Shown here in pieces: positions 35,545 to 53,262 of a stretch of 64,000 nucleotides of DNA. Both the position numbers and the translations under genes were made by a program. The stretch covers positions 34,690 to 98,689 of the forward strand of contig CAKOMG010000008.1 in the NCBI GenBank assembly GCA_934096585.1, written 5' to 3'. Each line of letters starts with the position of its first letter. The first letter of the stretch is position 1. Under the pieces are notes generated by a model, which had not been told where the DNA came from, searched no databases, and worked only from the letters and a program-made list of their open reading frames with translations. This DNA is from an uncultured Bacilli bacterium (GTDB lineage: Bacteria > Bacillota_I > Bacilli_A > ML615J-28 > CAG-698).

Positions 35545-35703
35545 TTATAAAGGTTTACCTTTATAAACGCATTTTATAGCAAGAAAATAACACTTGCTAT
35601 ACTAGGAGGAATCTATATGAGAAGACTTAGAATACAATACTCTATATTTATCATATTAGCATTTTTATCTATTATGAGTGTAGGTTTTGCTTCTTGGGTA
35701 ACA
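35545..35703 (+). repeat. 159-bp inverted repeat, left arm (5' UTR, SD and first 29 codons of the small cassette gene)
   Basis: Base-for-base identical, by my manual comparison, to the reverse complement of 45186-45344. Confidence 0.9.
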
Positions 35704-36231
35704 GCAAATGATAGTTCTTTTGAAATCAATGGCTCTATCATAGTTGATGATGTAAGAAGTAATAATGAATACTTAGAATGCGATGAAACACAAATTGAAG
35801 TATTTGAATTTTTTAAAACCGGATTCGTAAGTAACGATGGAGAGATAATAGATACAGGAGAAATTTATATTCCTTTTACAGTAAAAGTAAATAATTGTAG
35901 AGATGAATTTAAAAATAGTTCAAAGTTGGAAATTGTATTGAACTTTACAACAACCAATATGAATTTATTTGTTAATGATCCATTAAATATGAGTATAGTA
36001 TTAAAAAATAATAATGATGAAATTATTAAAACTATTGCTTCAACCAAAGATGGATTATTATCGTTTGAAATAAGTGGTTTACAGACTATTTCAAATAATA
36101 TAGATTATAAATTATATTATCAATTTACAAAAAATGAAATTGAAAAAACATTTAAAGATGATGTCTATCCAGAATTATTAAAAGATGGATTTACATTTCA
36201 GTTAAATGCTAAAATAACGGGAAGTGATTAA
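35617..36231 (+). CDS. cassette A small exported protein (TasA/CalY-like N-terminus, function unknown)
   Basis: AGGAGG SD. N-terminus MRRLRIQYSIFIILAFLSIMSVGFASWVTANDSSFEINGSIIVDD. Paralogous to the ORFs at 44670 and 45472. C-terminus AKITGSD. Confidence 0.8.
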   Translation: MRRLRIQYSIFIILAFLSIMSVGFASWVTANDSSFEINGSIIVDDVRSNNEYLECDETQIEVFEFFKTGFVSNDGEIIDTGEIYIPFTVKVNNCRDEFKNSSKLEIVLNFTTTNMNLFVNDPLNMSIVLKNNNDEIIKTIASTKDGLLSFEISGLQTISNNIDYKLYYQFTKNEIEKTFKDDVYPELLKDGFTFQLNAKITGSD

Positions 36232-36232
36232 T

Positions 36233-39200
36233 ATGAAAAATATCCGTCAAACAAGAATATTTTTAATTTCAATTTTAGTAATATCAATTGCAACTGTTAT
36301 AGGATTTTCTACATGGTTAATATCTGATAGTATTAATATAAAACCTAGTCCTGGAATAGATAAAGTAATAACTAGATATTTGTCAGGAAATGAAGGAACA
36401 TATGATGGAAATGTATTATTGCCATCAAGTGAAGCGATTGGTTTAGTTAATAATGGACGAAATACAGATTTACAATATAAGTATAAAAAAGCAAATTCAA
36501 CAGATGATTATATTAATTGTGAAGATAGTAATCAATCTGTAGGGCCAATTGATGCTGGAGATTATTTAATTGAAGTAACATATATAATTAATGAAACCGA
36601 ATCAGAAACAATTTCAAATATAAAGTTTACAATTAATCCTTTAGATATTGAAAATTGCGATGACATATTTATTGAATTCACGGAACATTCAGATAATAAA
36701 TTTATATATACTGGTAATGAAATCAGACCTGATGATTTACAAGTAAAGTATAAGCAAAGAATATTAGCGTTTGATAATGATTATACTGTGAATTATTTAA
36801 ATAATATAAATGTTAGTACTGAGGCTATAGTTCAAGTCATAGGACAAGGTAATTTTAAAGGAACTAAACAATTATATTTTGAAATTACTGATAAACCACA
36901 AATTATATATTTAAAAGCAATAAATGGAATTAATCAAACTGTAACATACAATGGAACACAACAAAAACCAGAAATAGTTGCTTATGCTGATGAAAACTAT
37001 ACACAAGTATTAGAAGATGTAACTTTAACGTATAATAATGTTCCTACTAATGCAAGAGAAACAGCATACATTGTCAGAGTTACAGCGTCAAAAGAAAATT
37101 ATGAAAGTACTTATATAGACATTTATCTAACAATTGAGCAAAAAGAGCTTGAATTAGAATGGCATAAATCAGAATACACATATACAGGATTATCTCAAGG
37201 GCCTGCATGTATAGCAACAAATTTAATAGATGGTGATAATTGTAATATTTTTTCAACAAAAGAGATAAATGCGGGAGATTATGTTGCTTCTATTATAAGC
37301 GTTAGTAATTCGAATTATAAATTACCGACAAATAATTTAACTTGCAATTTTATTATTAATAAAGCTAATTATAAATGCAAAACAATTGGTAAATTAAATT
37401 TTGATGGTGATTATTATATTGAAGGTAATCAATTAAACGTTAGTGGTTATGTATTAACAGATATTTTCGGAAATGAAATTAGTTGTGCTCAAGAAGCAGA
37501 CATATCGCAAACTAAGTTTACTGATGGAAATAGTGAAACTGTTAATGCTAATGTTAGTATTATATGTTCAGCCATAACTAAAGATTCTAATTACAATGAT
37601 TATATTACCTCTACATCAGTAGTTGTATATGCAGTAGCAACAATAGGAAGTAAATACTATGGTACTGTAGAAAGAGCATTAACAAACGCAGTAAGTGGAA
37701 ATGAAGTATATTTAATTCCTAATAGAAATCCTACTCTTAGAGAAAACGCTGAAGTTAAAAGTAATGTAACTCTATATTTAGTTTATCAAGCAGGTAAATT
37801 TTTAGATAATAGACAAAATTCTGTTGCGAATATTTTTGCTGAATCGCAAGAAACTAAATATTTGCAAAACACTTTAACAATTGAAAAAAGTATTGTTCTA
37901 ATTAATAATGGAACAATCAAAATAGATGGTATTACTGGAAATGCTGGTGCGATATATGCAGGACAAACATCTGGGTTTTATACACAAATAGTTATGAACG
38001 AATCATCTTCCATCAAAAATACTGGAGTAATTTACTGTTTAGGTTTTATTAAAGAATCATATAATGAAAATAATAGCATTATTTATATACAAAGTGGAAC
38101 GCTAACTGCCCCATTAGTTTTTTACGATTTTAAAGGTGGATCTGTATCAAACTATTTAAATGGGAAAAAAGTTTTTCCTATGAAAGTATTTGATATGCCT
38201 AATATTAGACCATTAATTAGAATAACTCAAGGGGCTAAATATGAAGCTATAACTGATATTTATATGAATAATAAACATTTTAATCAACAAGATTTATATG
38301 TTATAGGAACTTCTTCGGATAGTAATGCTCTATTAAAAATGACTTCTGGATATATAGATTTAAAATATAATACTACAGGAACCCCAACAATTAATTCAGG
38401 ATATCATGATTTTAATATATATGGAAATTGTGAGACTGGAAAATTAAAAGTCAACTTAGCTGGTACAGATGTAAGTACGGAAAATTTTTATTGCCCTATG
38501 TCATGGAAATTTAAAATCAAAATTTATAATAGCATGACAATAAAATCAAAATTTGAGTTTTTACCAGGATCATCTTTAATAATAAATAAAAATGCTACTT
38601 TGCAAATTGATAAAGATTGCTGTTTTTATCAATCATATAAAGATAAAGGTGGTCAAACTCCACTATATCCAAATATAAATAATGCAGCATTATTGAAAAT
38701 TAATGGAGTCTGTAAGATTAATGCTAATTTTTGTGGACGAATTGTTACTGAAGTATCTGGAGCTCAACTATACGTTTCAAATAACAATTTGACAGGAATT
38801 ACTGATGGAAGTGCTACAGCAAAATATGGCGGTTTTTCAGGTGATATGGTTTATGCCCAATGTGGAGATGTAACTTTAAATAATGCAACATTATATGCTT
38901 ATGGATGTTTTGAAAATAGCACAGATTTTTCACAAAAATTTAGTAGTAATGCGTATTATCTATCAAATGGCGATTATTGGAGCAATCAAGTATCAAGTGG
39001 TGAATTTAATGTTATTTACCACTATAAAGATTTAGATGGAAATGATCAATCTCAAACAATAACTTATAATATATTCTCTGGAATCACCCCTACTATACCT
39101 TTAATATCTGACCCTATTAGAAGATATTATAATTTTGATGGTTGGTTTACTGACGAATCTTACTCATATAGTTATGACACTATTAATGTTTCCGCAAATG

Positions 39201-40927
39201 GTACTTATAATATTTATGCAAAATATTCACCGATTGAATACACATTAATTTATGAGGATTTGAGTGATAATATTAAATTAGATAATGTTACATTTACTTA
39301 TGAAAATTATCAAAATATTATTATTGCAAATGAATTAATAGATGGAAAGACATTTATAGGATGGTATATTACTAAAGATTGGACTGATTCTGACATTGCT
39401 ATACCAGCAGGAAGCACAGGACAAGCAATTTTAAGATTAATTGAACAAATGTATAATAATAATATTAATGCCTTAACTTTATATGGAAAATATGATATTA
39501 TGCATAAAATTCAGTTTAATATCGGTTTAGAAGAATTTGATTTCGATGATGAATATGTTAGTGATGGTGGAACAATCTCTAAAATTAATGCTTATTCAAA
39601 TGCGTTAAGATCTCTTGAAAGCAATGATACTCAAAAAATGTACTTTGTTGAATGGATTGATAGTGATAATAATGTAATTACATCAAATACCATTATTACA
39701 AAAGATATGATTTTAAACGCGAAATTACAAACAAAAGCTCACACAATTACTTTCACTGGTGGTAATGAAGATGATATTCGTTATTCTAATACTACAGATT
39801 CATATATCATTCCTATCGAGGCTATTAAATCACCAACCGGTAGTAAAGATAAAGGTGATACTGAAGTAGAATATAATTTTGTTAATTGGCTTTGTGAAAA
39901 TGATGGAACAAATTACAATAAGGGTGACTCTATTGCTATAAATAGTAATTTAACATTCACAGCGAAATTTACAGAATCGACTTATTGCTATATATCAGCG
40001 AGCACTACTTCTGAAACTATCACAAAAATAACGATAGGCAATGAAGAAATATCTCAAAGCGGAGGATATTGGAAAGTATTACAAAATTCATCAATTACTG
40101 TAACAGTAACCCATAAGAATACAGGTAATGGATCTTCACAATCATTTAGTTATGATGATGGTTCAACGCATAACTTAACTGGTAATACTAATGGCGTTTA
40201 TAATTTTACTATAACTAAAAACACTGAAATTACTGCTTCTTCATCTGATGGATGTATAATAGAAGGAACTTTGATAACATTAGCAGATGGAACAAAGAAA
40301 AAAATTGAAGAACTACAATTTGGCGATTTATTGCTTACATGGGATTTCTTTACTGGAAGTTTCGATGTTAAACCTTTAATTGCATTAGAAAAAACAACTA
40401 GAAGAAATTTCGAAGTATTAAATATTTATTTAGATAATGGTTATAAAATCCAAGTCATAAGTGCACAATCTTTCTTCGATATGAACCTAAGAGAATACTT
40501 TGAAATTAATTTAACTAATTATGAAAGTGCAATAGGCAAACGCATTATGATTGTTGATGATGATAAGATTTCTTCTTCTAAGATTAGTACTATTCAAATA
40601 GAAGAGATTGAAACAGTAGCTTATGAATTAATTACAGCTGAAGATTTTAACTTTGTAGCAAATGATATTTTGACTATAGAACCATTTATATTCTGGGTTA
40701 ACACATTCAAAATTGATGAAAACTATCGATATAATATTGATCAATTTAACAAAGATGTAGAAAAATATGGATTATATGAATATGAAGAATGGTCAGATTA
40801 TTTAACAAAAGAAGAATTTGAAGCATTTAATGGAAAATACTTCAAAGTTGCTGTAGGTAAAGGATTAATTACAAAAGAATACATTTTAAAAGCTTTATCT
40901 ATTTATAAAAATAGTTATAAACATTAA
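36233..40927 (+). CDS. cassette A giant surface protein: N-terminal anchor, MBG-type repeats, beta-helix-like core, Listeria-Bacteroides repeats, C-terminal Hint domain
   Basis: Its ATG lies 1 nt after the small-gene stop (a GTG at 36224 is the alternative). TM plus IGFSTWLISD. MBG-like GPIDAGDYLIEVTY and YNGTQQKPEI. YYGTVERAL..NNGTIKIDG. GW repeats YYNFDGWFTDES, FIGWYITKDW and YNFVNWLCEN. Hint block A is G|CIIEGTLITLADGTKKKIEELQFGDLLLT. Confidence 0.85.
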   Translation: MKNIRQTRIFLISILVISIATVIGFSTWLISDSINIKPSPGIDKVITRYLSGNEGTYDGNVLLPSSEAIGLVNNGRNTDLQYKYKKANSTDDYINCEDSNQSVGPIDAGDYLIEVTYIINETESETISNIKFTINPLDIENCDDIFIEFTEHSDNKFIYTGNEIRPDDLQVKYKQRILAFDNDYTVNYLNNINVSTEAIVQVIGQGNFKGTKQLYFEITDKPQIIYLKAINGINQTVTYNGTQQKPEIVAYADENYTQVLEDVTLTYNNVPTNARETAYIVRVTASKENYESTYIDIYLTIEQKELELEWHKSEYTYTGLSQGPACIATNLIDGDNCNIFSTKEINAGDYVASIISVSNSNYKLPTNNLTCNFIINKANYKCKTIGKLNFDGDYYIEGNQLNVSGYVLTDIFGNEISCAQEADISQTKFTDGNSETVNANVSIICSAITKDSNYNDYITSTSVVVYAVATIGSKYYGTVERALTNAVSGNEVYLIPNRNPTLRENAEVKSNVTLYLVYQAGKFLDNRQNSVANIFAESQETKYLQNTLTIEKSIVLINNGTIKIDGITGNAGAIYAGQTSGFYTQIVMNESSSIKNTGVIYCLGFIKESYNENNSIIYIQSGTLTAPLVFYDFKGGSVSNYLNGKKVFPMKVFDMPNIRPLIRITQGAKYEAITDIYMNNKHFNQQDLYVIGTSSDSNALLKMTSGYIDLKYNTTGTPTINSGYHDFNIYGNCETGKLKVNLAGTDVSTENFYCPMSWKFKIKIYNSMTIKSKFEFLPGSSLIINKNATLQIDKDCCFYQSYKDKGGQTPLYPNINNAALLKINGVCKINANFCGRIVTEVSGAQLYVSNNNLTGITDGSATAKYGGFSGDMVYAQCGDVTLNNATLYAYGCFENSTDFSQKFSSNAYYLSNGDYWSNQVSSGEFNVIYHYKDLDGNDQSQTITYNIFSGITPTIPLISDPIRRYYNFDGWFTDESYSYSYDTINVSANGTYNIYAKYSPIEYTLIYEDLSDNIKLDNVTFTYENYQNIIIANELIDGKTFIGWYITKDWTDSDIAIPAGSTGQAILRLIEQMYNNNINALTLYGKYDIMHKIQFNIGLEEFDFDDEYVSDGGTISKINAYSNALRSLESNDTQKMYFVEWIDSDNNVITSNTIITKDMILNAKLQTKAHTITFTGGNEDDIRYSNTTDSYIIPIEAIKSPTGSKDKGDTEVEYNFVNWLCENDGTNYNKGDSIAINSNLTFTAKFTESTYCYISASTTSETITKITIGNEEISQSGGYWKVLQNSSITVTVTHKNTGNGSSQSFSYDDGSTHNLTGNTNGVYNFTITKNTEITASSSDGCIIEGTLITLADGTKKKIEELQFGDLLLTWDFFTGSFDVKPLIALEKTTRRNFEVLNIYLDNGYKIQVISAQSFFDMNLREYFEINLTNYESAIGKRIMIVDDDKISSSKISTIQIEEIETVAYELITAEDFNFVANDILTIEPFIFWVNTFKIDENYRYNIDQFNKDVEKYGLYEYEEWSDYLTKEEFEAFNGKYFKVAVGKGLITKEYILKALSIYKNSYKH

Positions 40928-40960
40928 AATTTCTTCTTATTAATTAATGTAAACACATTT

Positions 40961-40998
40961 AAAAAAGTACGATTTCGTAAATGAGTCGTACTTTTTTG
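40961..40998 (+). terminator. rho-independent terminator after giant A
   Basis: AGTACGA-13 nt loop-TCGTACT followed by T6. Confidence 0.65.
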
Positions 40999-41884
40999 TT
41001 ATTTGATTTAAAAGCAGTAGTTTCATAATAAAAGCAAGTTATTTTATATAACTTTTGCAAGTTTTATAAATATAATTTAATAATCGTTTTTATATAAAAT
41101 CTATAGCATTGTTTTTTTCTTTAAAAAAATAATAATAAAATTATTAAAAAATAAATTTGAAAATATATCATATAATTAAATAAAAAGTAAAGTAGATTTA
41201 ATAATTTTTATACCCACTATAAAAATTATAAAAAATTAAAAGGAAAAGTAGAAAAATAAAGTAAGCTAAAATTTTCAAAAAATCATAAACAATTAAAAAT
41301 TTAATCATTTTTATTAAAATTTATAAAAAACTAAAAATTGTCAAAAAGTAAGAATTAAAAGTATAATTTGCTTAAAAAAGAAAATGGAAAATAATGTCAA
41401 ATTATTATTTCGTATTTCCCCTTAAATTTTAGCCATAATCTACTTTTATTTTTTTTACTGCTCATTTTACATTGAACATTTTAACCAAATTATAACGCAA
41501 ATTTCCGTTTTTTGAAAATTCTTAAATTTTTCAATAAATAATCAAAAAATTGATAAAAATTTAAGAAAAATCAATGATATAGGGGTATGAATTAAAAAGT
41601 TGATAAATCATTAAAACGCGGAATTGATAAAGAATTGAAAAAGGGCGTTTTTTAACTAAAAATTTATTCTTTTTTATCAAATTAATAAAACCATATATTT
41701 GTTTAATAATTAAGTGAAAAATGAACATAAAAATATTGATAATTGCCTATTTTAAGCCATTTATTAAATCATATTTTTTATATAAATTTATGCTAACAAA
41801 AAGAATTTATATGAACAAAAATAATAAAGGCGCTTTTTTCAATTTAATGATAAAAACGCCTTTAAATTATCTGTTTTTTACTAT

Positions 41885-44668
41885 TTATTTTTTAATTTCA
41901 TTCTTTTCCAGCGTTATATCAGCATATTTAGGAATATAAATATCAACTGAAACGACCCTTAATACTTTTATAGATGTAGCAGTAAAACTATGAGCTTCCT
42001 TAGAAACAACAGATGAATTGGTAGCATTAATTGATCCACTAGATATAATATTAACAATTCCTCCAAATGATGTAGCAAAAATTTTACCACTACAATTTAA
42101 AATTGCATCATCTTTTTTTGGGTAAGGTTGACTACCTAAATCGCCTTGTTCTACTGTTGTTCCATTAGGATATAAAGATTCACTTTTATAAACAGCAATT
42201 TCTTTAGCATTAAGTGTTACACCTTCATTTATAGTTAGTGATGAACCAGGTAATAATTTAAAACTTTGAGATGATGTATTTACAGTTGCAGTATTACCAT
42301 TTTCATAACTGTTCAAATTAATAATAAAGTAAAAAGGAACAGGTAAGAACACATTTTTTGATGAGACATTGATTTTTACATGAGCCGTAATACCCCATTT
42401 ACTTTTTTTAATGGCAAAATATACATCAATGCTTCCAAGTTCCCATGAACCAAAGGTATTTATTGAACATTTTTGTTTCTCTGTATTGAAAAAGCCTGTT
42501 AAACTTGCACCATTACTTAATTTAATTAAGCCATCACTAGAAATAATTTTCATATCAGCAGCATTGTGCTCACCATCAGCAAATAAAGCTGCTTTGCCTA
42601 CTAGTTTTGCACCATAATCAAATTTGAAATTAACATTTATAAAGCCATCTAAATACCATCTATTAAAAACATAACATACAGGTTTACCTTCACCTGTGGT
42701 TTTTCCACTCATACTTACGGAACTATTAACAACACTTTCAACTTCACTTTTATCTTTGCCTGCCATACCTGCAAATCTTGAACCGCCCCTATGTTCTACA
42801 ATTACATAAGGCATATTAACTATTGCTGTCGAACTATTTATTATAGATATATCATTTGAATTGTTTCCAGATATATAACCATAACAATTAATTGTTGAAT
42901 TATTGATTATTTTTGAAGAATTTAATAATTGAATTTCTGTATACTCTTGAGTTGCATTTCCATTTAGTAATTTTCCACCGCCTCCACTATTTTGGACAGC
43001 CCCTATTGTTAAAGTGCCATTATTAGTTAATGTTGAATTATTTATTATTTGAATAAATTGTTTTCTGTTGTCTGTTTTTGTATAGGCTATACTTGTTGAA
43101 TCATTTACATAACTGTGACTAGTAGTTCCACTGTATGGTAAACATAGTTCAACATTACTCTTTATCGTACAAGATTCTCTGATATAAGGGTTTCTATCAA
43201 TAATACAATAAATCACTCCTGAAGAAACAGAAGATAAAGCTAACTCTATTCTACTATAATATGTTGATCCATTATAACATACTGCTTTAACAGTTGTTGA
43301 AACCTTTATAACTAAAGAATTATAGTTTTGTGAATAAGAAGTAGGAATAAATGTTAATTCAATATCTGTAGCCTGAAGTGTTTCACTACTTCCTGATATA
43401 TTATATTGTGTTGTATCATATGACCATGTTCCGATAATTGTTCCATCATTTCCTACACCATTTACAGTTCCTTTGTTAGCACCATCAATTTCTGCTTGAT
43501 AACTACCAACAAATTCTTTTAATTTAGGTTCAGTTTCAAGTGTTAAATTAGCTTTATTTATAGTAAATGTTTTATTTTCTTTTACACAATCATAATTACT
43601 AGAACTGTTCCCTTTTAATCCAGTAATACTAAGTTTATATAAACCTGCATTTACATATCCACTTAGTATATCTGTTTGAAGCGATACATCATCGCCATCA
43701 TACACTGAGCCTTCTTTGATGGATGCAGATGGTGTATAAGCATAATCATGACCTTGATACACTGCATCACTTGGTATATTCCATTCAATATCTAACATTT
43801 TTTTATTTATTTGTAGATTAAATGAAGTTTCTGCTTTTTTAAATCCTTCCATAGTAACAGAAATTGTAACTTTATAAGAACCAGCATTAACTGCAAAATT
43901 ATCAATTAAGTCTATTCCAGCGGTTTGTGGTTGAAATTTATAATTAATATTGCTTTTGTCAATAGCTATGCTTTCGCCATTACTAGTAAAAGTAATGTCT
44001 TCAACTGGCACTATGAATTTTTCTTTATCATATATTTTTTCATAATTAGTTTTTGATAATGTAATTACTAAATCTGAAACAATAGTAAATTGTTCAGATA
44101 AAGTGCCTATATAATTACCCTGCCCAGCAAGAGTCATAGTAGCAATACCCCGATTAGTATTATTTAAATAACTGATTGTATAATCATTAGAAGTAAGAGT
44201 TAATACTTCATTATCTTCTATATCTACAGTAACACTTTCTATTTCTGGTTCCACTGCTGTACCAATATATGATAATTCATATTCTTTGAGTATTAGTAAG
44301 CCATTGCTGATGTCTCTTCTTTGAATAGTATGATTAAATTCAACAAATATATCACTAGAAGTAGTGTCAATTACTTTAACAATATATTCACCCGCATTTA
44401 TTGGCGCTCCATCAGTGTAGTCTTCAGAACTTGATTTATTCTTGTGCATTATTTTGCAATCAATTAAATTGTTCTTTTTTATGGCTTCTTTACCACTATA
44501 AATGCTTGTTTCTGTTTTTAAATAATAATTAACAACATCTTCAAAACTATATGTTGGTGTACTGTCAACGCTTGTTGTTATAAACCATGTTGCTAATCCA
44601 ATTAATGTTATTAATGGTAATAATAATATTAACATTAATGATGTAATAGATAAATTCTTTTTTTTCAT
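41885..44668 (-). CDS. cassette B giant surface protein (N-terminal anchor, MBG-type repeats, beta-helix-like core; no GW repeats, no Hint)
   Basis: ATG at 44668 (MKKKNL), 1 nt after the small-gene stop. IGLATWFITTS, INAGEYIVKV, YIGTAVEPEIESV, NAGSYKVTISV, TYYSRIELAL..NNGTLTIGAVQNSGGGG. Confidence 0.85.
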   Translation of the reverse strand: MKKKNLSITSLMLILLLPLITLIGLATWFITTSVDSTPTYSFEDVVNYYLKTETSIYSGKEAIKKNNLIDCKIMHKNKSSSEDYTDGAPINAGEYIVKVIDTTSSDIFVEFNHTIQRRDISNGLLILKEYELSYIGTAVEPEIESVTVDIEDNEVLTLTSNDYTISYLNNTNRGIATMTLAGQGNYIGTLSEQFTIVSDLVITLSKTNYEKIYDKEKFIVPVEDITFTSNGESIAIDKSNINYKFQPQTAGIDLIDNFAVNAGSYKVTISVTMEGFKKAETSFNLQINKKMLDIEWNIPSDAVYQGHDYAYTPSASIKEGSVYDGDDVSLQTDILSGYVNAGLYKLSITGLKGNSSSNYDCVKENKTFTINKANLTLETEPKLKEFVGSYQAEIDGANKGTVNGVGNDGTIIGTWSYDTTQYNISGSSETLQATDIELTFIPTSYSQNYNSLVIKVSTTVKAVCYNGSTYYSRIELALSSVSSGVIYCIIDRNPYIRESCTIKSNVELCLPYSGTTSHSYVNDSTSIAYTKTDNRKQFIQIINNSTLTNNGTLTIGAVQNSGGGGKLLNGNATQEYTEIQLLNSSKIINNSTINCYGYISGNNSNDISIINSSTAIVNMPYVIVEHRGGSRFAGMAGKDKSEVESVVNSSVSMSGKTTGEGKPVCYVFNRWYLDGFINVNFKFDYGAKLVGKAALFADGEHNAADMKIISSDGLIKLSNGASLTGFFNTEKQKCSINTFGSWELGSIDVYFAIKKSKWGITAHVKINVSSKNVFLPVPFYFIINLNSYENGNTATVNTSSQSFKLLPGSSLTINEGVTLNAKEIAVYKSESLYPNGTTVEQGDLGSQPYPKKDDAILNCSGKIFATSFGGIVNIISSGSINATNSSVVSKEAHSFTATSIKVLRVVSVDIYIPKYADITLEKNEIKK

Positions 44669-44669
44669 C

Positions 44670-45272
44670 TTATTCACCATTACCTGTTATTTTTGCACTA
44701 TATGTAAATTTACTATTCTTTAAACTATTATAAATAGTTGCAAAACTATCTAAATTATTTGTTATAGTAAATGATATAGTGATAGTTTTAGTATCTTGTG
44801 CTAAATCTTTAATTTCTATTTTTGATATACATTCATTCCCATTCACTGCTATATCATTACTTATTAATGAATCATCAGACACTTTAATTGTTACTGGAAG
44901 ATTTGTTGGATCATTAAAGAAGTTAAAACTATTATCACTATAAGTTGTTGTAAAGTATAAATTTAAAGATGTAGCATCTTTAAATGTTTCTTTACATTTT
45001 TTTATATCTATTGTAAGTTCTATACTCATAGTTCCTGTTTGACTGATACTTCCTTCATTTGTTACAAAACCTGTTTTATAGAATTTTAGTTTTGTTGGAG
45101 AAACATTTGTAATATATTCATTACTTTCAATGACATCATCTACTTGAATTGATCCTTCAATTGAAGATATTGGTGAATCAGTTGTTGTTACCCAAGAAGC
45201 AAAACCTACACTCATAATAGATAAAAATGCTAATATGATAAATATAGAGTATTGTATTCTAAGTCTTCTCAT
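44670..45272 (-). CDS. cassette B small exported protein
   Basis: The first 29 codons are identical to cassette A, and it diverges after that. C-terminus AKITGNGE. Confidence 0.8.
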   Translation of the reverse strand: MRRLRIQYSIFIILAFLSIMSVGFASWVTTTDSPISSIEGSIQVDDVIESNEYITNVSPTKLKFYKTGFVTNEGSISQTGTMSIELTIDIKKCKETFKDATSLNLYFTTTYSDNSFNFFNDPTNLPVTIKVSDDSLISNDIAVNGNECISKIEIKDLAQDTKTITISFTITNNLDSFATIYNSLKNSKFTYSAKITGNGE

Positions 45273-45344
45273 ATAGATTCCTCCTAGTATAGCAAGTGTT
45301 ATTTTCTTGCTATAAAATGCGTTTATAAAGGTAAACCTTTATAA
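45186..45344 (-). repeat. 159-bp inverted repeat, right arm
   Basis: See 35545-35703. Confidence 0.9.
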
Positions 45345-45396
45345 ATAGGGAAAATGAAAAAATCTTTCAAACGTTTTCACTTTTTTTCATAGAAGT

Positions 45397-45425
45397 TTGC
45401 ATTTTTTTACACTATATGTTATAAT
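45397..45425 (+). promoter_or_regulatory. promoter candidate for cassette C
   Basis: TTGCAT, 17-nt spacer, TG-n-TATAAT (extended -10), 47 nt upstream of the ATG at 45472. Confidence 0.55.
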
Positions 45426-45471
45426 ATATATATAGTTTATAAAGGTTTGGGTTAGTGAAAGGAGGGTTTAA

Positions 45472-46080
45472 ATGAAAAGATTAAGAACTCAATATTTTGT
45501 TCTTACTATATTAGCAGCACTATCTATAGTTAGCGTTGGTTTTGCTTCTTGGGTAACTGCTAATGACACTACCTTTTCTTTTAACGGTTCTATTGTTGTA
45601 GATGATATACAAGATAATAATAACTATATAACTTGTAATAACTTAAAGATATTTAAATATTTCAAAACAGGTTTTGTTGATGAAAACAACAAAATTGTTA
45701 ATAATGGTTCTATTTCTTTTGATTTAGTTATAAACAATAAAAATTGTAAAGCTAAATTCACTGATTCAACAGATCTTGAAATTAGTTTACAGTTAGAATC
45801 TAATAATTTAAATTTATTCCATAGTGATATTATATCTATGGAAGTAAAAAAAGATAATGAAACTCAAAACCCATTATTCAGTTTTGATCAAACCCTTTGT
45901 GTATTACCTATTACAATAACAAACTTTAAACAAGAGAAAGATACAATAACATTAAAAATCGAATATTTATTCACTATTACTAATTTAGATGAATTTAGTA
46001 ATACAGTTTATCCAATATTACTAACTAATGATTTTAATTTTGTATTAAGTGCAAAATTAACAGGAAGTGTAGGTGAGTAG
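45472..46080 (+). CDS. cassette C small exported protein
   Basis: GGAGGG SD. MKRLRTQYFVLTILAALSIVSVGFASWVTANDTTFSFNGSIVVDD. C-terminus AKLTGSVGE. Confidence 0.8.
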   Translation: MKRLRTQYFVLTILAALSIVSVGFASWVTANDTTFSFNGSIVVDDIQDNNNYITCNNLKIFKYFKTGFVDENNKIVNNGSISFDLVINNKNCKAKFTDSTDLEISLQLESNNLNLFHSDIISMEVKKDNETQNPLFSFDQTLCVLPITITNFKQEKDTITLKIEYLFTITNLDEFSNTVYPILLTNDFNFVLSAKLTGSVGE

Positions 46081-46082
46081 TA

Positions 46083-49000
46083 TTGATTGAATTTAAGAAA
46101 ATCAAAGTATTTTTGATTATGGTTCTAATAATACCAATACTTGTACTAATTGGTTTTAGTACCTGGATAATAACTAATAAATTAATTATTAAACCAGATA
46201 TCGAAGTAAATAAGGTATTAACAGAATATCTAAACTCACAAGAAGGAACATACAATGGAAATGTCCTTCTACCAAATAGTAAAGTAATAGGTATTGTTAA
46301 TAATGGTAGAAACACTGAATTAACATATTATTATAAGCAAAATACAGATGATAATTATATTGAGTGTGTTGATAGTAATACTTCAATTGGTCCTATTAAT
46401 GCCGGTGAATATTTAATTAAGGTAAAATATATAGTTAATGATACTATTTATACAATAGATAATATTGCTTTTAAAATTAATAAAGCAATCTATGATATGA
46501 GTAATATTACCTTTAATAATACTAGTAAAGTATATAATCGTGAGAATCAAATTATAGAATGTAATGGAACTCTGCCAAAAGGTGTAACTGTGACATATAC
46601 AGGTTTTGGAAAAAATGTTGGAGAATATCCTATTACAGCTTCATTTTCAGGTGATACTAGAAACTATGAAGCTATACCTGATAAAACAGCTACATTAACT
46701 ATTACTCCAAAAGATATAAGTGAATGTAGAATATACTTTAGTAATGTTGATATAACAACGGAAAATAATGGCTTTATCTTTTTAAGTGAAAGAACACTTA
46801 GTTATATTCAATCTGGTTTAACTATAAAAGATAATGAAGATATATTAAATGAATCTAGTGAGTATACAATTGATTGGAACAATTGTGGAGTACTTCCTGG
46901 TAGTACTAATACAGCAAACATTAGTGGTACAGGTAACTATACTGGTACATCTACTATAACTTACAAAATAGAACAACCAGAATTAATTGTTGTTGCCTCA
47001 TTAGAAGGCCAAATTGATTCAGCAACATACGATGGAAATATACATTATCCAAGTGTAAAAGTTATAACTAAATATAGTTCTACACCTTTAACTGATTATA
47101 CATTATCATATGATATGGAACCTATTAATGCTGGTCAATATAACGTTAAAGTAACAGCATCAAAATCTGGATATTTAGATGGATCTAGTTCAGTTTCAAT
47201 TGTTATTTATCCAGCAAGCATTAAAGATGCTGTAGTTAATGTTAGTTCACATTCTGATAATCCTAATTTCTTTGTTTATAATAATGGTAATGAAATTAGA
47301 CCATCAGTAGAATCGGTAGTTTTAAATGGAAAAACATTAACAGTTAATACTGAATATAATGTATCTAGTTATTCAAGCAATAGAAATGCATGTACAAATG
47401 CTGCAATAGTTACTGTTAAAGGAACAGGTAACTATACAGGTGAAGCTTCAGGATCATTTTCAATTCTAAAAGCAACTCCTATTGTTACTCTTCCAACATT
47501 CATAAAAAATACTATAATTGAAGGTGAAAAGCCAACTATTAAGTCACAAGGAGTAGCTAAACATAATAATGTAAATGTTAGCGGAACTTTCACTTCTTCA
47601 AACATTAATAATATTACATTTACTGTAGGAACAAATCCTACTAGTGAATTTGGTATTAATTATTCATTTATACCGAGTGATACAAATAATTATAACACTA
47701 TTAGTGATGCTGGTAGTGTAACTGTTACAGTATATGGTGTTGGATATAATAGTTCTAATAAAAACTATTATGGTACTATAGAAAAAGGGTTAAGTGCTGC
47801 TGCTTCTGGTCAAACTTTATGGGTAGTAACAAAGATATATGAAAATAGTGGTTTTTATCCAACTATTAAATCAAATTGTGCAGTAGGTAGTGGAATTACT
47901 TTAGCACTTACATATAAAGATGGTGATTATTCGACTGGATATAAAATATATAATAATGGTGATTCTTATGTATCAAATCCTGATGGAAATGCTATTGGAG
48001 CATGCTTGAAAGTAAACAACACTGCTACTATTACAATTAATGGTACACTTCTTGTGGGTGGTTATATGGATGTTAATTCAATTACTCAAGCAAGAGCTTC
48101 TTTAATGAATAATGGGATTATTAATTTTGAAAGCGGAAGTATTGTCAAAGCATATGGAAATATTAAAGGGATTGGAAATATCTACGCAAAAAGTGGTTCT
48201 ACTATTTATGATGCCTTTAGAATTTATGACTTCCCTGGAGCAAGATATGCAGCCGGTATGTATTATAAAACTAAGAAACCTCTAGCAAGTGATACTTATA
48301 ATAATATTATGCCATTTAATTGCTATTCACTACATAATATTTCCTGTCCTATTAATATTTATTATAATTGCAATTATTTTGCAAGATATCAATTAAATGT
48401 TTCAAATACTATCTATGCAGATGATATTAAAATGTTTGGTTCTAATGGCTTTTTCAATCTTACAACTGATAATGAAGGTTCATTAGACAAAGGATACATC
48501 AGAAGAACCATTGAAGATACTACAAAAAGCACAAATATAAATTCCTCTTTTTCAACTTCTAATCAAGATCTTACTCAAAGAGAGGTATATGAAATTTATT
48601 CAAACATTATAGACAATGAAATACATGTTTCTTTAAAAATTTTAACTGTATCAGTAAATATTAATACTTCTACTGACTTGGCTATGCCAATTGGATTGAT
48701 GAAGTTAATTATTAAGAATGGATATACTGTCACTTTTTCAAAAAACTCATATAAATTCTTACCTGGTTCTTTGTTACAAATTGATGAGGGAGGCAAATTG
48801 CTTCTTAATAATGCAACGAATACTATTTTTTATGATGAATATTATGATAATTTTACTTCAACAAACCAAGGTGGAACCTCTACTAATCATGCTTCTTTTT
48901 CATATCATATACAACATAAAGCTCTATATAATGTTAGTAATGATATTTACACAGTAAAAGAAAATTATATTTCAAAAATAATTGTAAATGGTACCTTAGA

Positions 49001-50600
49001 AGTTCAAGGTGGATTTGGTGGTCTTATTGAAACAAATTCAACAAATGGTAAAATTATTTTTAATTCAAATAACGCAACAATTAATAGATTAATAAGCATC
49101 AAAGAATTAGCTAACTCTGAAGTTTTGAATATAAATCATGGAGTTGTATATCAAGACACTCAATATTCAAGACTTAAAATGTACAATGGCGAAAGCATTA
49201 ATAGTGGTTATAGTACTGTTGCTGCTGGAACATATTATTCTATTCAAGATAATTATGGTAATTATGGATGGCGTACAGATAAATTAAATATTAGTTATGA
49301 TTTAAATGGAGGATCTGGCATTACTCCTGATCCTATTCTAAACATACCTGTTTCAACGGGAGGTTATACTATTCAATCTACAGACATACCATCTGATGTT
49401 TTCACTAGAGAGTATTATGAATTTATTGGTTGGGCTCTTGATGGTCATGGAAATTCTATGATCATTCCAAATGAAACAATTATTTATGCAAGTTCTGTAT
49501 TTTATGCAATATGGAATCCTATCCCATACTCTATTACATATCATAACGTTTATTATAATAATTGTGGAAGTGGAGACAATTTAGATATTAATCCGAACCC
49601 AAGTGAATTAACTATAGAAAGTGCTTTTAATTTGGGCAATCCAACAAATGGAAATTACTTATTTGATGGTTGGTATACTGATCCATCTTGTAATAGCGAG
49701 TATCGTATTACTAGTATTCAAAACATGCATAATGATTTAATCTTATATGCTCATTGGTTCCCAGAAGGAACTAAAACAATTACTATTAAGTATAATATTA
49801 ATGTACATTCAGATGTTACTGATTTAATTCCTGATATGCCCGATGAAACAATTCCTCTTGTCAATAATCAAACGTCTTGGCAACCTATGGACCTTAAAGC
49901 AATAGCTAACAATAATAACACAATACAATATTACTTTGAAGGATGGTATTTTGAAGATGGTACTGATTATAGTCCAGAAGAATTATCAAGTAGAATTCAA
50001 GAAGATAATACTATTACTACAGTAACATTAAAAATATATGTTAAAGCTAAACTTAAAGTAACATATGTGGATGTTGAAGGCTTTGAGTACATTAGTAAAC
50101 CTGATGATTATTATATTATTCCAGGATCCACAATTACTTTAGCAAGTGGTTCTGCTCAAACTATCACAGATGATGCAAAAGGAGAAAAAAAGATTTATAC
50201 TTTTTCAACATATTCAATTACTGGAATGACAGGACAATTTGATCTTGGATCTTCTGTTCAAATCAATAGTGCTACTGATAATATAGTTACTATAAAACCT
50301 ATTTTAACAACAAAATCATTATATAAAATTAGCTATTCAGATAGTAAAAAAATTGTAAGCAGTATAACTTATGATGGTACTAATGTAACTGATGGTATGT
50401 ATGTTGAAATAGGCAAAGTGTTAATCGTAAAACTTAAAAATGTAGGAAAAACAGATACTGCTAATTCTTTAACTATAACAAACGGCAGCATCCTTGAAGC
50501 AACATTTACTCAAGCGAAAACATGGTTTGGATCTGGTAACCCTAAAGAATTCACTTATACATGGTCATCCTTTAAGGGCACTTTGATTATTTCAAGTTAA
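46083..50600 (+). CDS. cassette C giant surface protein (N-terminal anchor, MBG-type repeats, beta-helix-like core, Listeria-Bacteroides repeats)
   Basis: TTG start 2 nt after the small-gene stop, with an AGGTGAG SD. IGFSTWIITN, INAGEYLIKVKY, INAGQYNVKVTAS, NYYGTIEKGL. GW repeats YYEFIGWALDGHG, YLFDGWYTDPSCNSEY and YYFEGWYFEDGTDY. Confidence 0.85.
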   Translation: MIEFKKIKVFLIMVLIIPILVLIGFSTWIITNKLIIKPDIEVNKVLTEYLNSQEGTYNGNVLLPNSKVIGIVNNGRNTELTYYYKQNTDDNYIECVDSNTSIGPINAGEYLIKVKYIVNDTIYTIDNIAFKINKAIYDMSNITFNNTSKVYNRENQIIECNGTLPKGVTVTYTGFGKNVGEYPITASFSGDTRNYEAIPDKTATLTITPKDISECRIYFSNVDITTENNGFIFLSERTLSYIQSGLTIKDNEDILNESSEYTIDWNNCGVLPGSTNTANISGTGNYTGTSTITYKIEQPELIVVASLEGQIDSATYDGNIHYPSVKVITKYSSTPLTDYTLSYDMEPINAGQYNVKVTASKSGYLDGSSSVSIVIYPASIKDAVVNVSSHSDNPNFFVYNNGNEIRPSVESVVLNGKTLTVNTEYNVSSYSSNRNACTNAAIVTVKGTGNYTGEASGSFSILKATPIVTLPTFIKNTIIEGEKPTIKSQGVAKHNNVNVSGTFTSSNINNITFTVGTNPTSEFGINYSFIPSDTNNYNTISDAGSVTVTVYGVGYNSSNKNYYGTIEKGLSAAASGQTLWVVTKIYENSGFYPTIKSNCAVGSGITLALTYKDGDYSTGYKIYNNGDSYVSNPDGNAIGACLKVNNTATITINGTLLVGGYMDVNSITQARASLMNNGIINFESGSIVKAYGNIKGIGNIYAKSGSTIYDAFRIYDFPGARYAAGMYYKTKKPLASDTYNNIMPFNCYSLHNISCPINIYYNCNYFARYQLNVSNTIYADDIKMFGSNGFFNLTTDNEGSLDKGYIRRTIEDTTKSTNINSSFSTSNQDLTQREVYEIYSNIIDNEIHVSLKILTVSVNINTSTDLAMPIGLMKLIIKNGYTVTFSKNSYKFLPGSLLQIDEGGKLLLNNATNTIFYDEYYDNFTSTNQGGTSTNHASFSYHIQHKALYNVSNDIYTVKENYISKIIVNGTLEVQGGFGGLIETNSTNGKIIFNSNNATINRLISIKELANSEVLNINHGVVYQDTQYSRLKMYNGESINSGYSTVAAGTYYSIQDNYGNYGWRTDKLNISYDLNGGSGITPDPILNIPVSTGGYTIQSTDIPSDVFTREYYEFIGWALDGHGNSMIIPNETIIYASSVFYAIWNPIPYSITYHNVYYNNCGSGDNLDINPNPSELTIESAFNLGNPTNGNYLFDGWYTDPSCNSEYRITSIQNMHNDLILYAHWFPEGTKTITIKYNINVHSDVTDLIPDMPDETIPLVNNQTSWQPMDLKAIANNNNTIQYYFEGWYFEDGTDYSPEELSSRIQEDNTITTVTLKIYVKAKLKVTYVDVEGFEYISKPDDYYIIPGSTITLASGSAQTITDDAKGEKKIYTFSTYSITGMTGQFDLGSSVQINSATDNIVTIKPILTTKSLYKISYSDSKKIVSSITYDGTNVTDGMYVEIGKVLIVKLKNVGKTDTANSLTITNGSILEATFTQAKTWFGSGNPKEFTYTWSSFKGTLIISS

Positions 50601-50614
50601 TTAAAAAATTCATA

Positions 50615-50650
50615 AAAGGACAAACCTTTCTTAGGTTTGCCCTTTTTCTT
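50615..50650. terminator. bidirectional terminator between convergent genes
   Basis: AAGGACAAACCT-TTCTT-AGGTTTGCCCTT with A/T runs on both sides. Confidence 0.7.
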
Positions 50651-50655
50651 ATCCA

Positions 50656-51294
50656 TTATTCCTCTAATAAATCCTCTATCCTACATCCTAATACTTTAGA
50701 TAATCTAAATAATATATCTACTTGTGCTTTATTTATATCATTCTTCCTTTGTTCATACATTTGAATATTTCGAATTGATACTTCTGCTGCTTTTGCTAAT
50801 TCACTTTGAGATAAACCCGCAATACTTCTAAATTTTTTTAAATTCGTTACTTCCACTTTTTTATTTACATATTCATCTGCAACACTATAAAACTTTGTTA
50901 TATCAGCTTCATGTAATGGGTTATATAAACCAATTATTTTATCAACCGGAAATCTTTTATTGATAGTTTCAAATGATATACATTTATAGTTTTGATAATA
51001 TGCAAGTACATAACCTGTCCAGTAATATTTATTGCGATCAAAAAAAGGTTTAATGTTTTTTAACTTTTCTCTTTCTTTAGATTCTTCAATAATTATATAC
51101 AATAACTCTTCTGCTGATAAACCAACTAAATACTTAGGATTACCTCTTTCTATTTCTTTTGCAACTTTTGAACAAACAAATCTATTCCAAAAATTAATTA
51201 TATCTATTCCACAATTATTAACATATGTTAACATTGTGCCTAAGTTATCAGCAACACTTTCAACGTATAGCTCATTATAAGATCTAATTGACAT
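50656..51294 (-). CDS. DUF3791-like domain protein with a C-terminal XRE-type HTH
   Basis: I prefer the ATG at 51294 (MSIRSY), 5 nt after GAGGTGG, which overlaps the upstream gene by 11 nt. C-terminal HTH LKKFRSIAGLSQSELAKAAEVSIRNIQMYEQRKNDINKAQVDILFRLSKVLGCRIEDLL. Confidence 0.7.
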   Translation of the reverse strand: MSIRSYNELYVESVADNLGTMLTYVNNCGIDIINFWNRFVCSKVAKEIERGNPKYLVGLSAEELLYIIIEESKEREKLKNIKPFFDRNKYYWTGYVLAYYQNYKCISFETINKRFPVDKIIGLYNPLHEADITKFYSVADEYVNKKVEVTNLKKFRSIAGLSQSELAKAAEVSIRNIQMYEQRKNDINKAQVDILFRLSKVLGCRIEDLLEE

Positions 51295-51937
51295 CTTTTC
51301 CACCTCTTCTAATAATATCCATTATAAACAAATCATTAGAATCAATCTTTTTAGTATTATTGGTATAATATTTTCTTGCTGTTTCATCTCTTTTCATTCT
51401 TTTATCATAATACTCCACTGGATTAACAGTATCAAAGCCCAAATATTTTATATTATCAAAAGCATCTTTTGATTTTAAAACTATTTGTATTCCAAGTTCA
51501 CCTAAATACATGGCTTCTTCAAGTTGTTTGATTGAAATAACATTATTTATAAAATCTTTCGCAAAACTAAAGTATGAATCATCAGCGCGATATCCAATAA
51601 TGATATCATAATTATCTACATCTATATAATAATTGTTGATTAAAAATTCTTTTGCTTCCCCTCCAACAACTGTGTTAATAGAAAAAGATCTAAATTTTAG
51701 TAATATTGCCATCCAATTTAAAATACTATATTTAGTTAAATATAATACCTTATATTTACTTTCATCTATTTCATATTTATTGGCATAACAATTAGCCTCA
51801 AAATCTGTACATGCCCATTCTTTGGCAAGTTCTAAACTTTCTGTACAATAAAATCCTAAGCCATAGTCATTATAAATATTACCTTTTTTAAATATTGGTT
51901 TTTCAATTATATTTTTTGATCCATGATAAATAATCAT
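51284..51937 (-). CDS. DUF3990-like protein
   Basis: MIIYHGSKN...DYGLGFYCTESLELAKEWA. The conserved GFY motif is the family hallmark as I recall it. Paralogous to the core of the 31225 ORF. Confidence 0.7.
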   Translation of the reverse strand: MIIYHGSKNIIEKPIFKKGNIYNDYGLGFYCTESLELAKEWACTDFEANCYANKYEIDESKYKVLYLTKYSILNWMAILLKFRSFSINTVVGGEAKEFLINNYYIDVDNYDIIIGYRADDSYFSFAKDFINNVISIKQLEEAMYLGELGIQIVLKSKDAFDNIKYLGFDTVNPVEYYDKRMKRDETARKYYTNNTKKIDSNDLFIMDIIRRGGKDVN

Positions 51938-52090
51938 TTTATATACCTTTCCTTTATTATATTATATCATTATAATGATATAGTGTCAAATACATATTAT
52001 AATTATATTACATTTTACAAATATTATTTATAAAAAATGACAAGCATTTAACTTGCCATTAATTTAAATTTTTTAATATAAATAATAAAA

Positions 52091-52771: not shown

Positions 52772-53016
52772 TAAAGATCTCTTATTCTACTTCAATTACA
52801 CTTGCAATACATTACTCTTATTCCAAAAAAGGAAAAAGGGAAAATGATTGTTCTTCTGCAAACTACATTTCCTATAACGGAACAAAGGTTGGTAGTAAAG
52901 CAGGCGGAAGTTATAAACTATTTAGTGACGGCTTTTATGCATTACAAGATCAAAACGATACTTATACACCTTCAACTGCAGATGTTGCAATTGAAATTTA
53001 TTCTACGCCAGCATAA
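52759..53016 (+). pseudogene. 3' remnant of a further giant-adhesin paralog
   Basis: An 85-codon frame without a start (..SSANYISYNGTKVGSKAGGSYKLFSDGFYALQDQNDTYTPSTADVAIEIYSTPA*). It is followed by a copy of the terminator found after giant C. Compare SSITYDGTNV in the giant C tail. Confidence 0.55.
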
Positions 53017-53024
53017 TATTTCAT

Positions 53025-53062
53025 AAAAGGACAAGCCTATTTCTTAGGTCTGTCCTTTTTCT
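53025..53062. terminator. diverged duplicate of the 50615-50650 terminator
   Basis: TTCATAAAAGGACAAGCCTATTTCTTAGGTCTGTCCTTTTTCTT compared with TTCATAAAAGGACAAACCTTTCTTAGGTTTGCCCTTTTTCTT. Confidence 0.6.
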
Positions 53063-53232: not shown

Positions 53233-53262
53233 CATTTTTTTAAAATTTTTGTTAATACTTTT

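Follow-up and report, generated by a model that had tools for sequence, protein, structure and literature searches.

In the genome of an uncultured Bacilli bacterium (assembly GCA_934096585.1), a stretch of 64,000 nt of contig CAKOMG010000008.1 (positions 34,690 to 98,689, here called the window; about 26% G+C and very AT-rich) carries three paralogous gene cassettes, each coupling a small exported protein of about 200 aa (S1-S3) to a giant protein (G1-G3). We found that these cassettes are the strain-variable tail of a conserved, undescribed cluster of about 11 genes around a SipW-like signal peptidase. Cassettes and cluster probably form a new cell-surface display system. The best overall explanation, which we hold at about even confidence, is that the cassettes are variable output modules of the SipW-linked cluster, cleaved, strand-complemented and diversified by recombination.

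The peptidase gene lies just beyond the window, to which the rest of the contig was joined by a 12,748-nt overlap with 0 mismatches; positions above 64000 are window-extended coordinates. The cluster genes of this genome are as follows.

66025-66669, minus strand: A-type small GFA(S/A)W protein, the second of the SipW-adjacent pair
65290-66006, minus strand: A-type small GFA(S/A)W protein adjoining the peptidase gene
64277-65281, minus strand: SipW-type signal peptidase, 334 aa, beginning 277 nt past the window end
62491-64000, minus strand: membrane protein of 597 aa with a McrB-like AAA domain (PADLOC PDC-M26A, E 1e-40), cut by the window end
61253-62488, minus strand: 411-aa protein with a C-terminal zinc-ribbon-like motif, a conserved cluster gene
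58907-61251, minus strand: ABC ATPase of 249 aa and 530-aa multi-pass permease (12TM_1 and ABC2_membrane_4 matches, both weak)
56498-58906, minus strand: 802-aa exported protein of no known family, a conserved cluster gene
55409-56494, minus strand: lipoprotein of 361 aa with an LTGC lipobox and one Flg_new repeat, directly upstream of the small-giant pair in other lineages

The 334-aa peptidase matches TIGR02228 (archaeal/ER-type signal peptidase I) with 64.4 bits against a cutoff of 51.85, over profile positions 2-156 of 158. It also matches the Bacillus SipW model NF046067 at E 1.2e-17, yet under the equivalog cut-off (64 vs 190), and it is extended at both ends, by a transmembrane region at the N-terminus and by about 95 aa at the C-terminus. 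The catalytic motifs SGSM, VIHRI and RGDAN..D are kept in its complete homologues, and NCBI gives the name 'signal peptidase I' (Bacilli bacterium or Acholeplasmataceae bacterium) to proteins that share 90% identity or more with it. An earlier note on this DNA had stated that no LPXTG, sortase, sipW or pilin-type machinery lies in the window, and had advised looking for a SipW-type peptidase in the rest of the genome. With regard to sipW, the statement is literally true but misleading, since the gene sits on the same contig, within the same conserved cluster. As for the other machinery, the giants have no C-terminal LPXTG, and Pfam scans of the window and cluster, which did not cover every ORF, gave no sortase or pilus ATPase.

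We scanned metagenomes with a 22-sequence alignment of the small protein, which gave 47 loci from human gut, rumen and giraffe samples, and derived the gene order by ORF calling and phmmer with the window proteins. A genome scan also gave loci in which two small proteins, with ...SVGFASW... and ...STGFAAW..., are encoded directly 5' of a 340-aa protein with SGSM, HR and GDAN. The recurring order is [small, small]-SipW-AAA (597 aa)-Zn ribbon (411 aa)-ABC ATPase-530-aa permease-exported protein of about 800 aa-Flg_new lipoprotein-[small-giant], of which the window holds the part from AAA to lipoprotein at 64000-55409 on the minus strand. The SipW gene stands in one gene string with small-giant pairs in loci L009, L011-L035 and L048, and the GFASW motif adjoins the peptidase gene in every lineage with the cluster. 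The SipW-adjacent A-type proteins number two to six tandem paralogues across loci; in L053 (9106-13868), six tandem small genes with the GFASW motif lie directly 5' of the SipW-like gene as an expansion of this type. Every cluster-carrying lineage has the AAA and Zn-ribbon genes at this one place, with the SipW-like gene on one side and the ABC genes on the other; the two may be an inserted defence system or a part of the surface system. In the present genome a defence-like block (50656-55287) splits the cassettes from the remainder of the cluster, which are contiguous in other lineages. The hosts are uncultured, very low-GC gut Bacilli, with metagenome-assembled genomes labelled Bacilli or Acholeplasmataceae. 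Our literature search found no description of this cluster, and nothing relevant on the motif or on SipW in Acholeplasma, Mollicutes or gut adhesins. As for other processing enzymes, an M48/M56 peptidase beside cassette 1 was rejected because it is not conserved beside cassettes in other lineages.

The three cassettes are arranged as below, where arrows mark the predicted cut.

35617-36231, plus strand: S1, small exported protein of cassette 1, an ORF of 204 aa with N-terminal helix, SVGFA↓SW motif and then a beta-sandwich
36233-40927, plus strand: G1, giant of cassette 1, 1564 aa from ATG (an alternative in-frame start, GTG at 36224, gives 1567 aa), with helix and IGFS↓TW, MBG-like repeats, all-beta core, Flg_new repeats, C-terminal Hint-like module and tail domain
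40960-40998, plus strand: terminator-like hairpin 3' of G1
44668-41885, minus strand: G2, giant of cassette 2, 927 aa from ATG at 44668 (an alternative ATG at 44680 gives 931 aa), with helix and IGLA↓TW, Ig/MBG-like repeats and 490-aa all-beta core
45272-44670, minus strand: S2, small exported protein of cassette 2, an ORF of 200 aa
45472-46080, plus strand: S3, small exported protein of cassette 3, an ORF of 202 aa
46083-50600, plus strand: G3, giant of cassette 3, 1505 aa with a TTG start, with helix and IGFS↓TW, MBG-like repeats, core and Flg_new repeats
50614-50646: terminator 3' of G3

Re-reading the six ORFs and their junctions confirmed the three pairs as the earlier note gave them. The genes of each pair are separated by 1-2 nt (TAA-t-ATG for S1/G1, TAA-g-ATG for S2/G2 and TAG-ta-TTG for S3/G3, read from the sequence), and at all three junctions the final codons of the small gene form a Shine-Dalgarno-like GGAAG/GGTGA for the giant (AGGTGAG for G3); the genes are translationally coupled, as the earlier note stated. 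In all six proteins a charged tip comes first, next a hydrophobic helix and then G-[FL]-[AS]-[ST]-W. The pattern G[FLIVM][AS][ASTG]W occurs six times in window ORFs of at least 60 aa, always at the N-termini of S1-S3 and G1-G3; the giants do repeat the helix and W motif of the small proteins. The other quoted motifs are also present, apart from a slip in spacing (S1 and S3 have three, not four, residues between F and GSI). Outside the N-termini the cassettes are strongly diverged, as had been noted, and extremely so among conspecific strains. Identities among the small proteins are 52% over 137 aa for S1-S2, 41% for S1-S3 and 40% for S2-S3; among the giants they are 26% for G1-G2, 25% for G2-G3 and, for G1-G3, 56% across the first 135 aa and about 24% beyond. 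Judged from these values, the cassette paralogues are old.

The shared motif reads like a signal-peptidase site. Its consensus in 184 distinct small proteins is S(82%)-[VI]-G-F(97%)-[AS](98%)-[SAT]-W-x-[IVL], and that of the larger motif proteins (giants and stand-alone cores) is G-[YFKL]-[SAG]-x-W-[IVLM]-[ILF]. As a cleavage site it would have G at P3, A/S/G at P1 and an invariant W at P2'. TasA of Bacillus is cut at VGGGTWA↓AF, with F at P2', and is processed by the ER-type peptidase SipW, whereas aromatic P2' residues are poorly cleaved by Escherichia coli LepB (PMC10269814). By this parallel with TasA, which we infer, a predicted aromatic P2' site would explain why the motif and the SipW-like gene travel together. 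In contrast to type IV pili, the hydrophobic helix precedes the motif here rather than following it. Moreover, the likeness between the A-type and the cassette small proteins is confined to the first 54-73 residues (hhalign 96.8% and 90.2% against single sequences), and the alignment of the two families reaches 98.5% over the N-terminal 57 columns only. About 25 residues after the W are kept between these otherwise unrelated proteins. Since they share nothing but this N-terminus, the helix, the motif and the roughly 25 post-motif residues make up a portable module.

With regard to the link between small and giant genes, 35 of 67 small genes have an ORF of at least 500 aa within 30 nt downstream (mostly at -4 or 0 nt), and 33 of these 35 ORFs carry the W motif. 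The downstream neighbour of the remaining small genes is another small gene (14), SipW (8) or another gene (6), or is missing from the locus (4). In four of the six 'other' cases the next ORF bears the motif but is too short to count, on a short contig or near the locus end. Linkage of the small gene to giants elsewhere, on which the earlier note made its idea depend, is thus found in almost every related locus, and once as a fusion. This fusion, P0148 (1538 aa), joins the small domain to a giant by nature; its cluster has two members from independent sources, and one conspecific strain has it where a cassette would stand. At the junction the small domain runs straight into '...YWLIT...', so that the hydrophobic helix of the giant is gone and its W-strand is kept. 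Because P0148 drops the helix and keeps the strand, the W-strand of the giant should have a role after export that is independent of membrane insertion. As read from its sequence, P0148 places the mature N-terminal strand of the giant beside the C-terminal strand of the small protein. From the 1:1 coupling, the tolerated fusion and the presence of separate A-type proteins by the peptidase, we think it more likely that each cassette small protein serves its own giant as an adaptor or base subunit than that it forms the main polymer, which is the least certain part of our proposal. The SipW-adjacent A-type proteins are better candidates for the major fibre subunit.

Scans of S1-S3 against Pfam and NCBIfam gave no family match, including no PF12389 at E<=1 and no match to TIGR04088, the model for SipW-cognate signals of the type GGTxAxFxD. 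The two small proteins beside the SipW gene likewise matched no family of either database, PF12389 included. A word-indexed search returned just 17 relatives of the small protein, whereas an exhaustive HMM search from the alignment of those relatives gave 624 representatives at E<=1e-3 and 193 at E<=1e-10 (at the level of 50%-identity clusters); nearly all of the 150 matches listed are 190-250 aa long. When the PDB was searched by sequence, S1 alone and a 49-sequence profile both returned just noise (IL-1 alpha, adenovirus fibre), and the profile picked up neither TasA nor AbpA. For a direct comparison, the TasA sequence was verified against PDB 8AUR and 28 TasA-family proteins, all carrying PF12389, were aligned. 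By hhalign, the 49-sequence small-protein alignment matched this 28-sequence alignment with a probability of 0.66% (E 0.086), and TasA alone with 0.57%. The sole aligned parts were the signal regions (VGFASW with VGGGTW; G.I.VD with GTLDL), without significance. We therefore rejected the small proteins as divergent TasA homologues and do not count the family among TasA members; the TasA/CalY-like character suggested by the earlier note has no support from sequence homology to TasA, CalY or Peptidase_M73.

The fold is another matter. An AlphaFold2 (AF2) model of S1 from an 18-sequence alignment (pLDDT 82, pTM 0.72) has a helix at residues 3-23, a low-confidence (<50), unpacked segment at 20-37 and a compact beta-sandwich at 40-203. 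The earlier note would have given up its idea for a fold other than a jelly-roll with an uncleaved anchor and no strand-exchange geometry, for a genome without a SipW-type peptidase or for small genes never linked to giants elsewhere, and none of these three conditions refuted it. S1 models as a beta-sandwich/jelly-roll behind the N-terminal helix. In Foldseek against the PDB, jelly-rolls lead (MAM, ephrin-receptor ligand-binding domain, CBM4) with TM-scores of just 0.2-0.4, and the matches at E<1e-3 include three archaeal donor-strand filaments, AbpA (7ueg, E 7e-4), cannulae (9h8b) and Hyper2 (9bab). The modelled fold class is compatible with a TasA-like subunit and not diagnostic of one.

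The helix could also have another meaning. If it stayed uncleaved, the cassette products would be type-II membrane proteins of a probably wall-less host, with G-F-A-S-W as an interfacial (aromatic-belt) or helix-packing motif through which small protein and giant would associate in the membrane, and the SipW-like enzyme would act on the A-type pair only or be the general signal peptidase. Membrane anchors often have a tryptophan where their transmembrane helix ends, residues 3-23 are helical in the AF2 model, and wall-less Acholeplasma-like hosts (by their NCBI label) cannot use sortase and LPXTG, in which no giant ends. On the other hand, invariant small residues at -3 (G) and -1 (A/S/G) before [ST]-W are the classic signal-peptidase pattern, and the same motif occurs beside the peptidase gene in every lineage. 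Moreover, P0148 loses the helix and not the strand, and about 25 residues after the W are kept between A-type and cassette proteins that are otherwise unrelated. We regard a permanent anchor as unlikely.

Equally doubtful, in our opinion, is a TasA-like homopolymer, in which the cassette small proteins would polymerise by donor-strand exchange and each giant would cap or nucleate its own fibre. A jelly-roll with a free N-terminal segment, the weak Foldseek matches to AbpA and cannulae, the SipW linkage and the precedents of abpA-abpB and tapA-tasA all speak for it. However, translational coupling and fusion imply a 1:1 stoichiometry, the A-type proteins with their two to six tandem paralogues are better candidates for a major subunit, and TasA homology is missing.

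The giants can reasonably be called adhesin-like from their sequences. Of the domains claimed for them earlier, the Listeria-Bacteroides repeats (Flg_new / List_Bact_rpt) are significant in G1 and G3 and absent from G2, and MBG_3 was found only in G3, as a weak match (E 0.015). They share a core of about 490 aa, and homologues of this core also occur on their own, in proteins of 520-570 aa that carry the signal motif too (G-x-x-x-W). The AF2 model of the core of G2 is all-beta (pLDDT 86, pTM 0.86), and Foldseek against PDB and BFVD gave no neighbour at E<0.1, the best non-significant ones being Ag43, tailspikes, Awp1 and Hbp. The label 'beta-helix' in the earlier note is thus not established for this core. 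In near-identical strains of one gut species (L011-L035, L048), the giant 3' of a 226-227-aa small gene varies from 1024 to 1615 aa while the lengths of the flanking genes are constant, which makes the giant a strain-level hypervariable gene. G1 ends in a further module.

40190-40927, plus strand: Hint-like autoprocessing module (CIIEGTLITLADG... and CIIEGTLITLADGTKKKIEEL...) and conserved tail of about 90 aa, G1 residues about 1323-1567 (Pfam Hint E 3.2e-4, Intein_splicing E 6.9e-4, both under the gathering cut-off)

This module, found in G1 only among the three giants and also at the end of the fusion P0148, may autoprocess or release the C-terminus of G1. Such an ending, with a conserved domain of about 90 aa behind a Hint-like module, recalls polymorphic toxins of contact-dependent competition, in which the giants would deliver Hint-released C-terminal effectors and the small proteins would be export or immunity partners; the hypervariability of the cassettes and the defence-like genes on their flanks would also fit. 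But G2 and G3 lack the module and in G1 it stays under the Pfam cut-off, the small genes are upstream and encode exported proteins, unlike immunity genes, no immunity-like ORF follows downstream, and what is conserved around the cassettes are genes for a signal peptidase, a lipoprotein and an exported protein. We consider a toxin system very improbable.

It is evident that the cassettes vary far more than their surroundings. In the conspecific strains of loci L056 and L057 the flanks are 96-98% identical to the window, whereas the cassettes are about 70% identical or unalignable, an extreme form of the diversification suggested earlier. The L056 cassettes encode 210+760 aa, the 1538-aa fusion and 202+1360 aa; those of L057 are S3-G3 and S1-G1 only. 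The start of S3 and G3 is 95% identical to an L056 cassette located at the other position, and both positions and orientations of cassettes differ among strains. The following elements bear on this variation.

35545-35712: inverted-repeat arm 1, 168 nt and 99% identical, covering 72 nt 5' of S1 and its first 32 codons
45177-45344: inverted-repeat arm 2, covering the 5' end of S2 and its upstream region
35545-35566 and 45323-45344: perfect palindrome TTATAAAGGT-TT-ACCTTTATAA of 22 bp in two inverted copies, with 10-bp half-sites and a 2-bp core, 51-72 nt 5' of S1 and S2
29333-29944, plus strand: serine recombinase of resolvase/invertase type, 203 aa (Pfam Resolvase PF00239, E 1.8e-24)
41104-41789: conserved non-coding stretch between the convergent G1 and G2

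The number of palindrome matches expected by chance is 0.03. Compared with its flanks, the S1-G1 segment of L057 is inverted, with breakpoints that map to the inverted-repeat arms. At the M48-proximal junction (L057 16140-16162) the match to the window extends over the left half-site and the TT core and ends there, at the centre of the palindrome. This one junction, seen in a comparison between strains, looks like a serine-recombinase crossover. The 203-aa resolvase is a candidate catalyst of cassette inversion, and L001 has a 204-aa resolvase in the corresponding region. Alternatively, the palindrome could serve a regulator as its operator. The non-coding stretch at 41104-41789 is 79-83% identical in L056 and L057 and 72% in L001, where the adjacent giants are unalignable; it contains no ORF of at least 80 aa and no Rfam match at gathering score, the only such match in our Rfam scan being a tRNA. 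A promoter scan gave no usable signal, with 126 sites against 136 expected in AT-rich DNA. Tail-fibre or tailspike cassettes of a prophage with an invertase, like gin of Mu or cin of P1, would account for the inverted repeats, the nearby resolvase, the breakpoint at the palindrome centre and the tailspikes and beta-helix adhesins as top matches of the giant core (none significant, none at E<0.1), but such an origin is hardly credible, as the window scans gave no phage structural genes, all the proteins carry secretion signals and the chromosomal synteny with SipW, ABC genes and lipoprotein is kept across lineages.

Putting these results together, we propose the following course for the SipW-linked display system. 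The Sec-exported precursors would be cut by the dedicated peptidase after G-F-[AS], which would expose a conserved N-terminal segment resembling a beta-strand. The mature small protein would be a jelly-roll/beta-sandwich, the first 15 or so residues of which are unpacked in the monomer model, and would bind its cognate giant. In the likeliest mode, the N-terminal W-strand of the giant would complement the sandwich of the small protein in the fashion of TapA and TasA, and the small protein's own N-terminal segment would plug the pair into a common scaffold of A-type proteins or other small subunits. Variable binding surfaces would come from the giants, through their Listeria-Bacteroides repeats, their MBG/Ig-like repeats and the novel all-beta core. 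The adhesins would be swapped and diversified by recombination where the 5' ends are shared, probably including serine-recombinase inversion at the 22-bp palindrome. Strand complementation, both between giant and small protein and between small protein and scaffold, would be the most economical mechanism because of two parallels: TapA donates its N-terminus to TasA (PMC10151520), and the larger AbpB, encoded just downstream of abpA, is a proposed initiator and adhesin that would donate its N-terminus in the same way (PMC9245690). Indirect hints of donor-strand exchange are the unpacked residues 20-37 of the S1 model, the conserved segment after the predicted cut and the junction of P0148.

Several points weigh against this proposal. 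A heterodimer would account better than a tipped polymer for the fusion and for the tight 1:1 translational coupling. No sequence homology to TasA or camelysin is detectable by Pfam, NCBIfam, PDB profile or hhalign, and in Foldseek TasA is not among the best 50 matches, which have low TM-scores and generic jelly-rolls on top. Cleavage is read from the motif, and the N-terminal helix could instead hold the proteins in the membrane permanently. Rather than a dedicated enzyme, the peptidase may be the general signal peptidase of the organism, and in this genome it is about 13.7 kb from the nearest cassette, with the inserted defence-like block between. Finally, a single species contributes many of the supporting loci through its strains, so that there are about ten independent lineages.

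A bolder version of the proposal may be worth stating. In it, the cluster would be an unrecognised donor-strand filament system on the surface of wall-less or low-GC gut bacteria: the SipW-like peptidase would unmask one shared strand on backbone, adaptors and giant adhesins, which would self-assemble extracellularly without chaperone, usher or sortase; the tip adhesins would be exchanged by site-specific inversion at the hix-like palindrome, and P0148 would have evolved as a 'self-complemented' subunit. We put this forward as a tentative possibility.

As far as peptidase-substrate logic is concerned, the cluster resembles tapA-sipW-tasA of Bacillus (sipW-tasA-calY in B. cereus), though by any sequence test it is not of the TasA family. 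Both encode an ER/archaeal-type signal peptidase beside its substrates (predicted here), and in both several substrates share one specialised signal with small P3 and P1 and aromatic P2' residues (again predicted for the cassettes). Both also have a secreted protein of about 200 aa with a conserved N-terminal segment (a beta-sandwich or jelly-roll, modelled as such for the cassettes) and a larger accessory protein of the same signal class. On the other hand, the cassette family is without PF12389 and TIGR04088 and has the motif G-F-A↓S-W instead of G-G-T-W-A↓A-F-N-D. Its adhesin-like giants of 930-1570 aa are coupled 1:1 to small genes, six further conserved genes (AAA, Zn ribbon, ABC pair, 800-aa protein and lipoprotein) accompany it, and its cassettes are multiplied and shuffled in a very low-GC, Acholeplasma-like gut host.

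The archaeal AbpA/AbpB of Pyrobaculum (7UEG) and the CanA-type cannulae (9H8B) have a jelly-roll pilin with an N-terminal donor strand, followed immediately by a larger, signal-bearing protein proposed as initiator and adhesin, an arrangement like the one that we propose for the cassettes, and they are weak Foldseek matches of the S1 model (E 7e-4 to 8e-4, TM 0.30-0.42, query-normalised). However, AbpA matches PF12389 by HHpred at 97%, which the cassette family does not, and the archaeal operon has no dedicated peptidase. In concept, the cassettes also recall the FimH/FimG tips of chaperone-usher pili, in which strand complementation (hypothetical here) links the adhesin with a small Ig-like adaptor, and P0148 recalls engineered self-complemented pilins in attaching the N-terminal strand of the next protein to the C-terminus of the small domain. 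In contrast to those pili, there is here no usher, no periplasmic chaperone and no homology, and the organism is monoderm or wall-less.

With regard to inversion, the candidate site, a 22-bp element with its 10-bp dyad half-sites and 2-bp core, inverted at the 5' ends of alternative surface-protein genes, is like those of Hin/hix, Gin/gix, Cin and the shufflons. The 203-aa resolvase-family gene about 5.6 kb away and the one strain with a breakpoint exactly at the core add to this likeness. Unlike in those systems, the cassettes seem to retain an upstream region each, which leaves no on/off switch in evidence, and it is the comparison between strains that supports inversion here.

Some other genes of the window should be mentioned. 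Defence-like genes bracket the cassettes, at 50656-55287 and 31225-32876, in blocks that also hold an M78 peptidase and HTH regulators.

53263-54696: dGTPase-like HD protein in the defence-like block
51284-51937, 31225-32079 and 32076-32876: DUF3990 proteins (PADLOC candidates PDC-M42A/B and PDC-M13)

Further away, three paralogous lipoproteins of about 200 aa with an LSGC lipobox (8559-9152, 9161-9760 and 13480-14082) surround a gene at 9963-13460 for a BspA-type leucine-rich-repeat surface protein of 1165 aa with an ordinary AXA-type signal peptide, and a second BspA leucine-rich-repeat protein is encoded at 19737-20570. These lipoprotein and BspA genes look like another variable surface-protein family of the same genome.

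Monoderm prokaryotes are not known to have chaperone-free donor-strand filaments other than the SipW-dependent matrix fibres (TasA, CalY and BsaA, and AbpA as their archaeal relative), which have so far been recognised through one Pfam family. The locus described here points to a second, sequence-unrelated SipW-linked family with 624 representatives, all unannotated, in uncultured human and animal gut Bacilli labelled Acholeplasmataceae, and this family appears to follow the peptidase logic of the first. The pattern S-[VI]-G-F-[AS]-[ST]-W together with a TIGR02228-positive neighbour provides a search key for hundreds of hypothetical proteins. The shuffling of cassettes is a candidate mechanism of antigenic variation. 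If confirmed, our proposal would extend the SipW-substrate paradigm to a new lineage and to a new architecture with giant strain-specific adhesins, and would open a way to study host or partner attachment in uncultured gut bacteria that probably have no wall.

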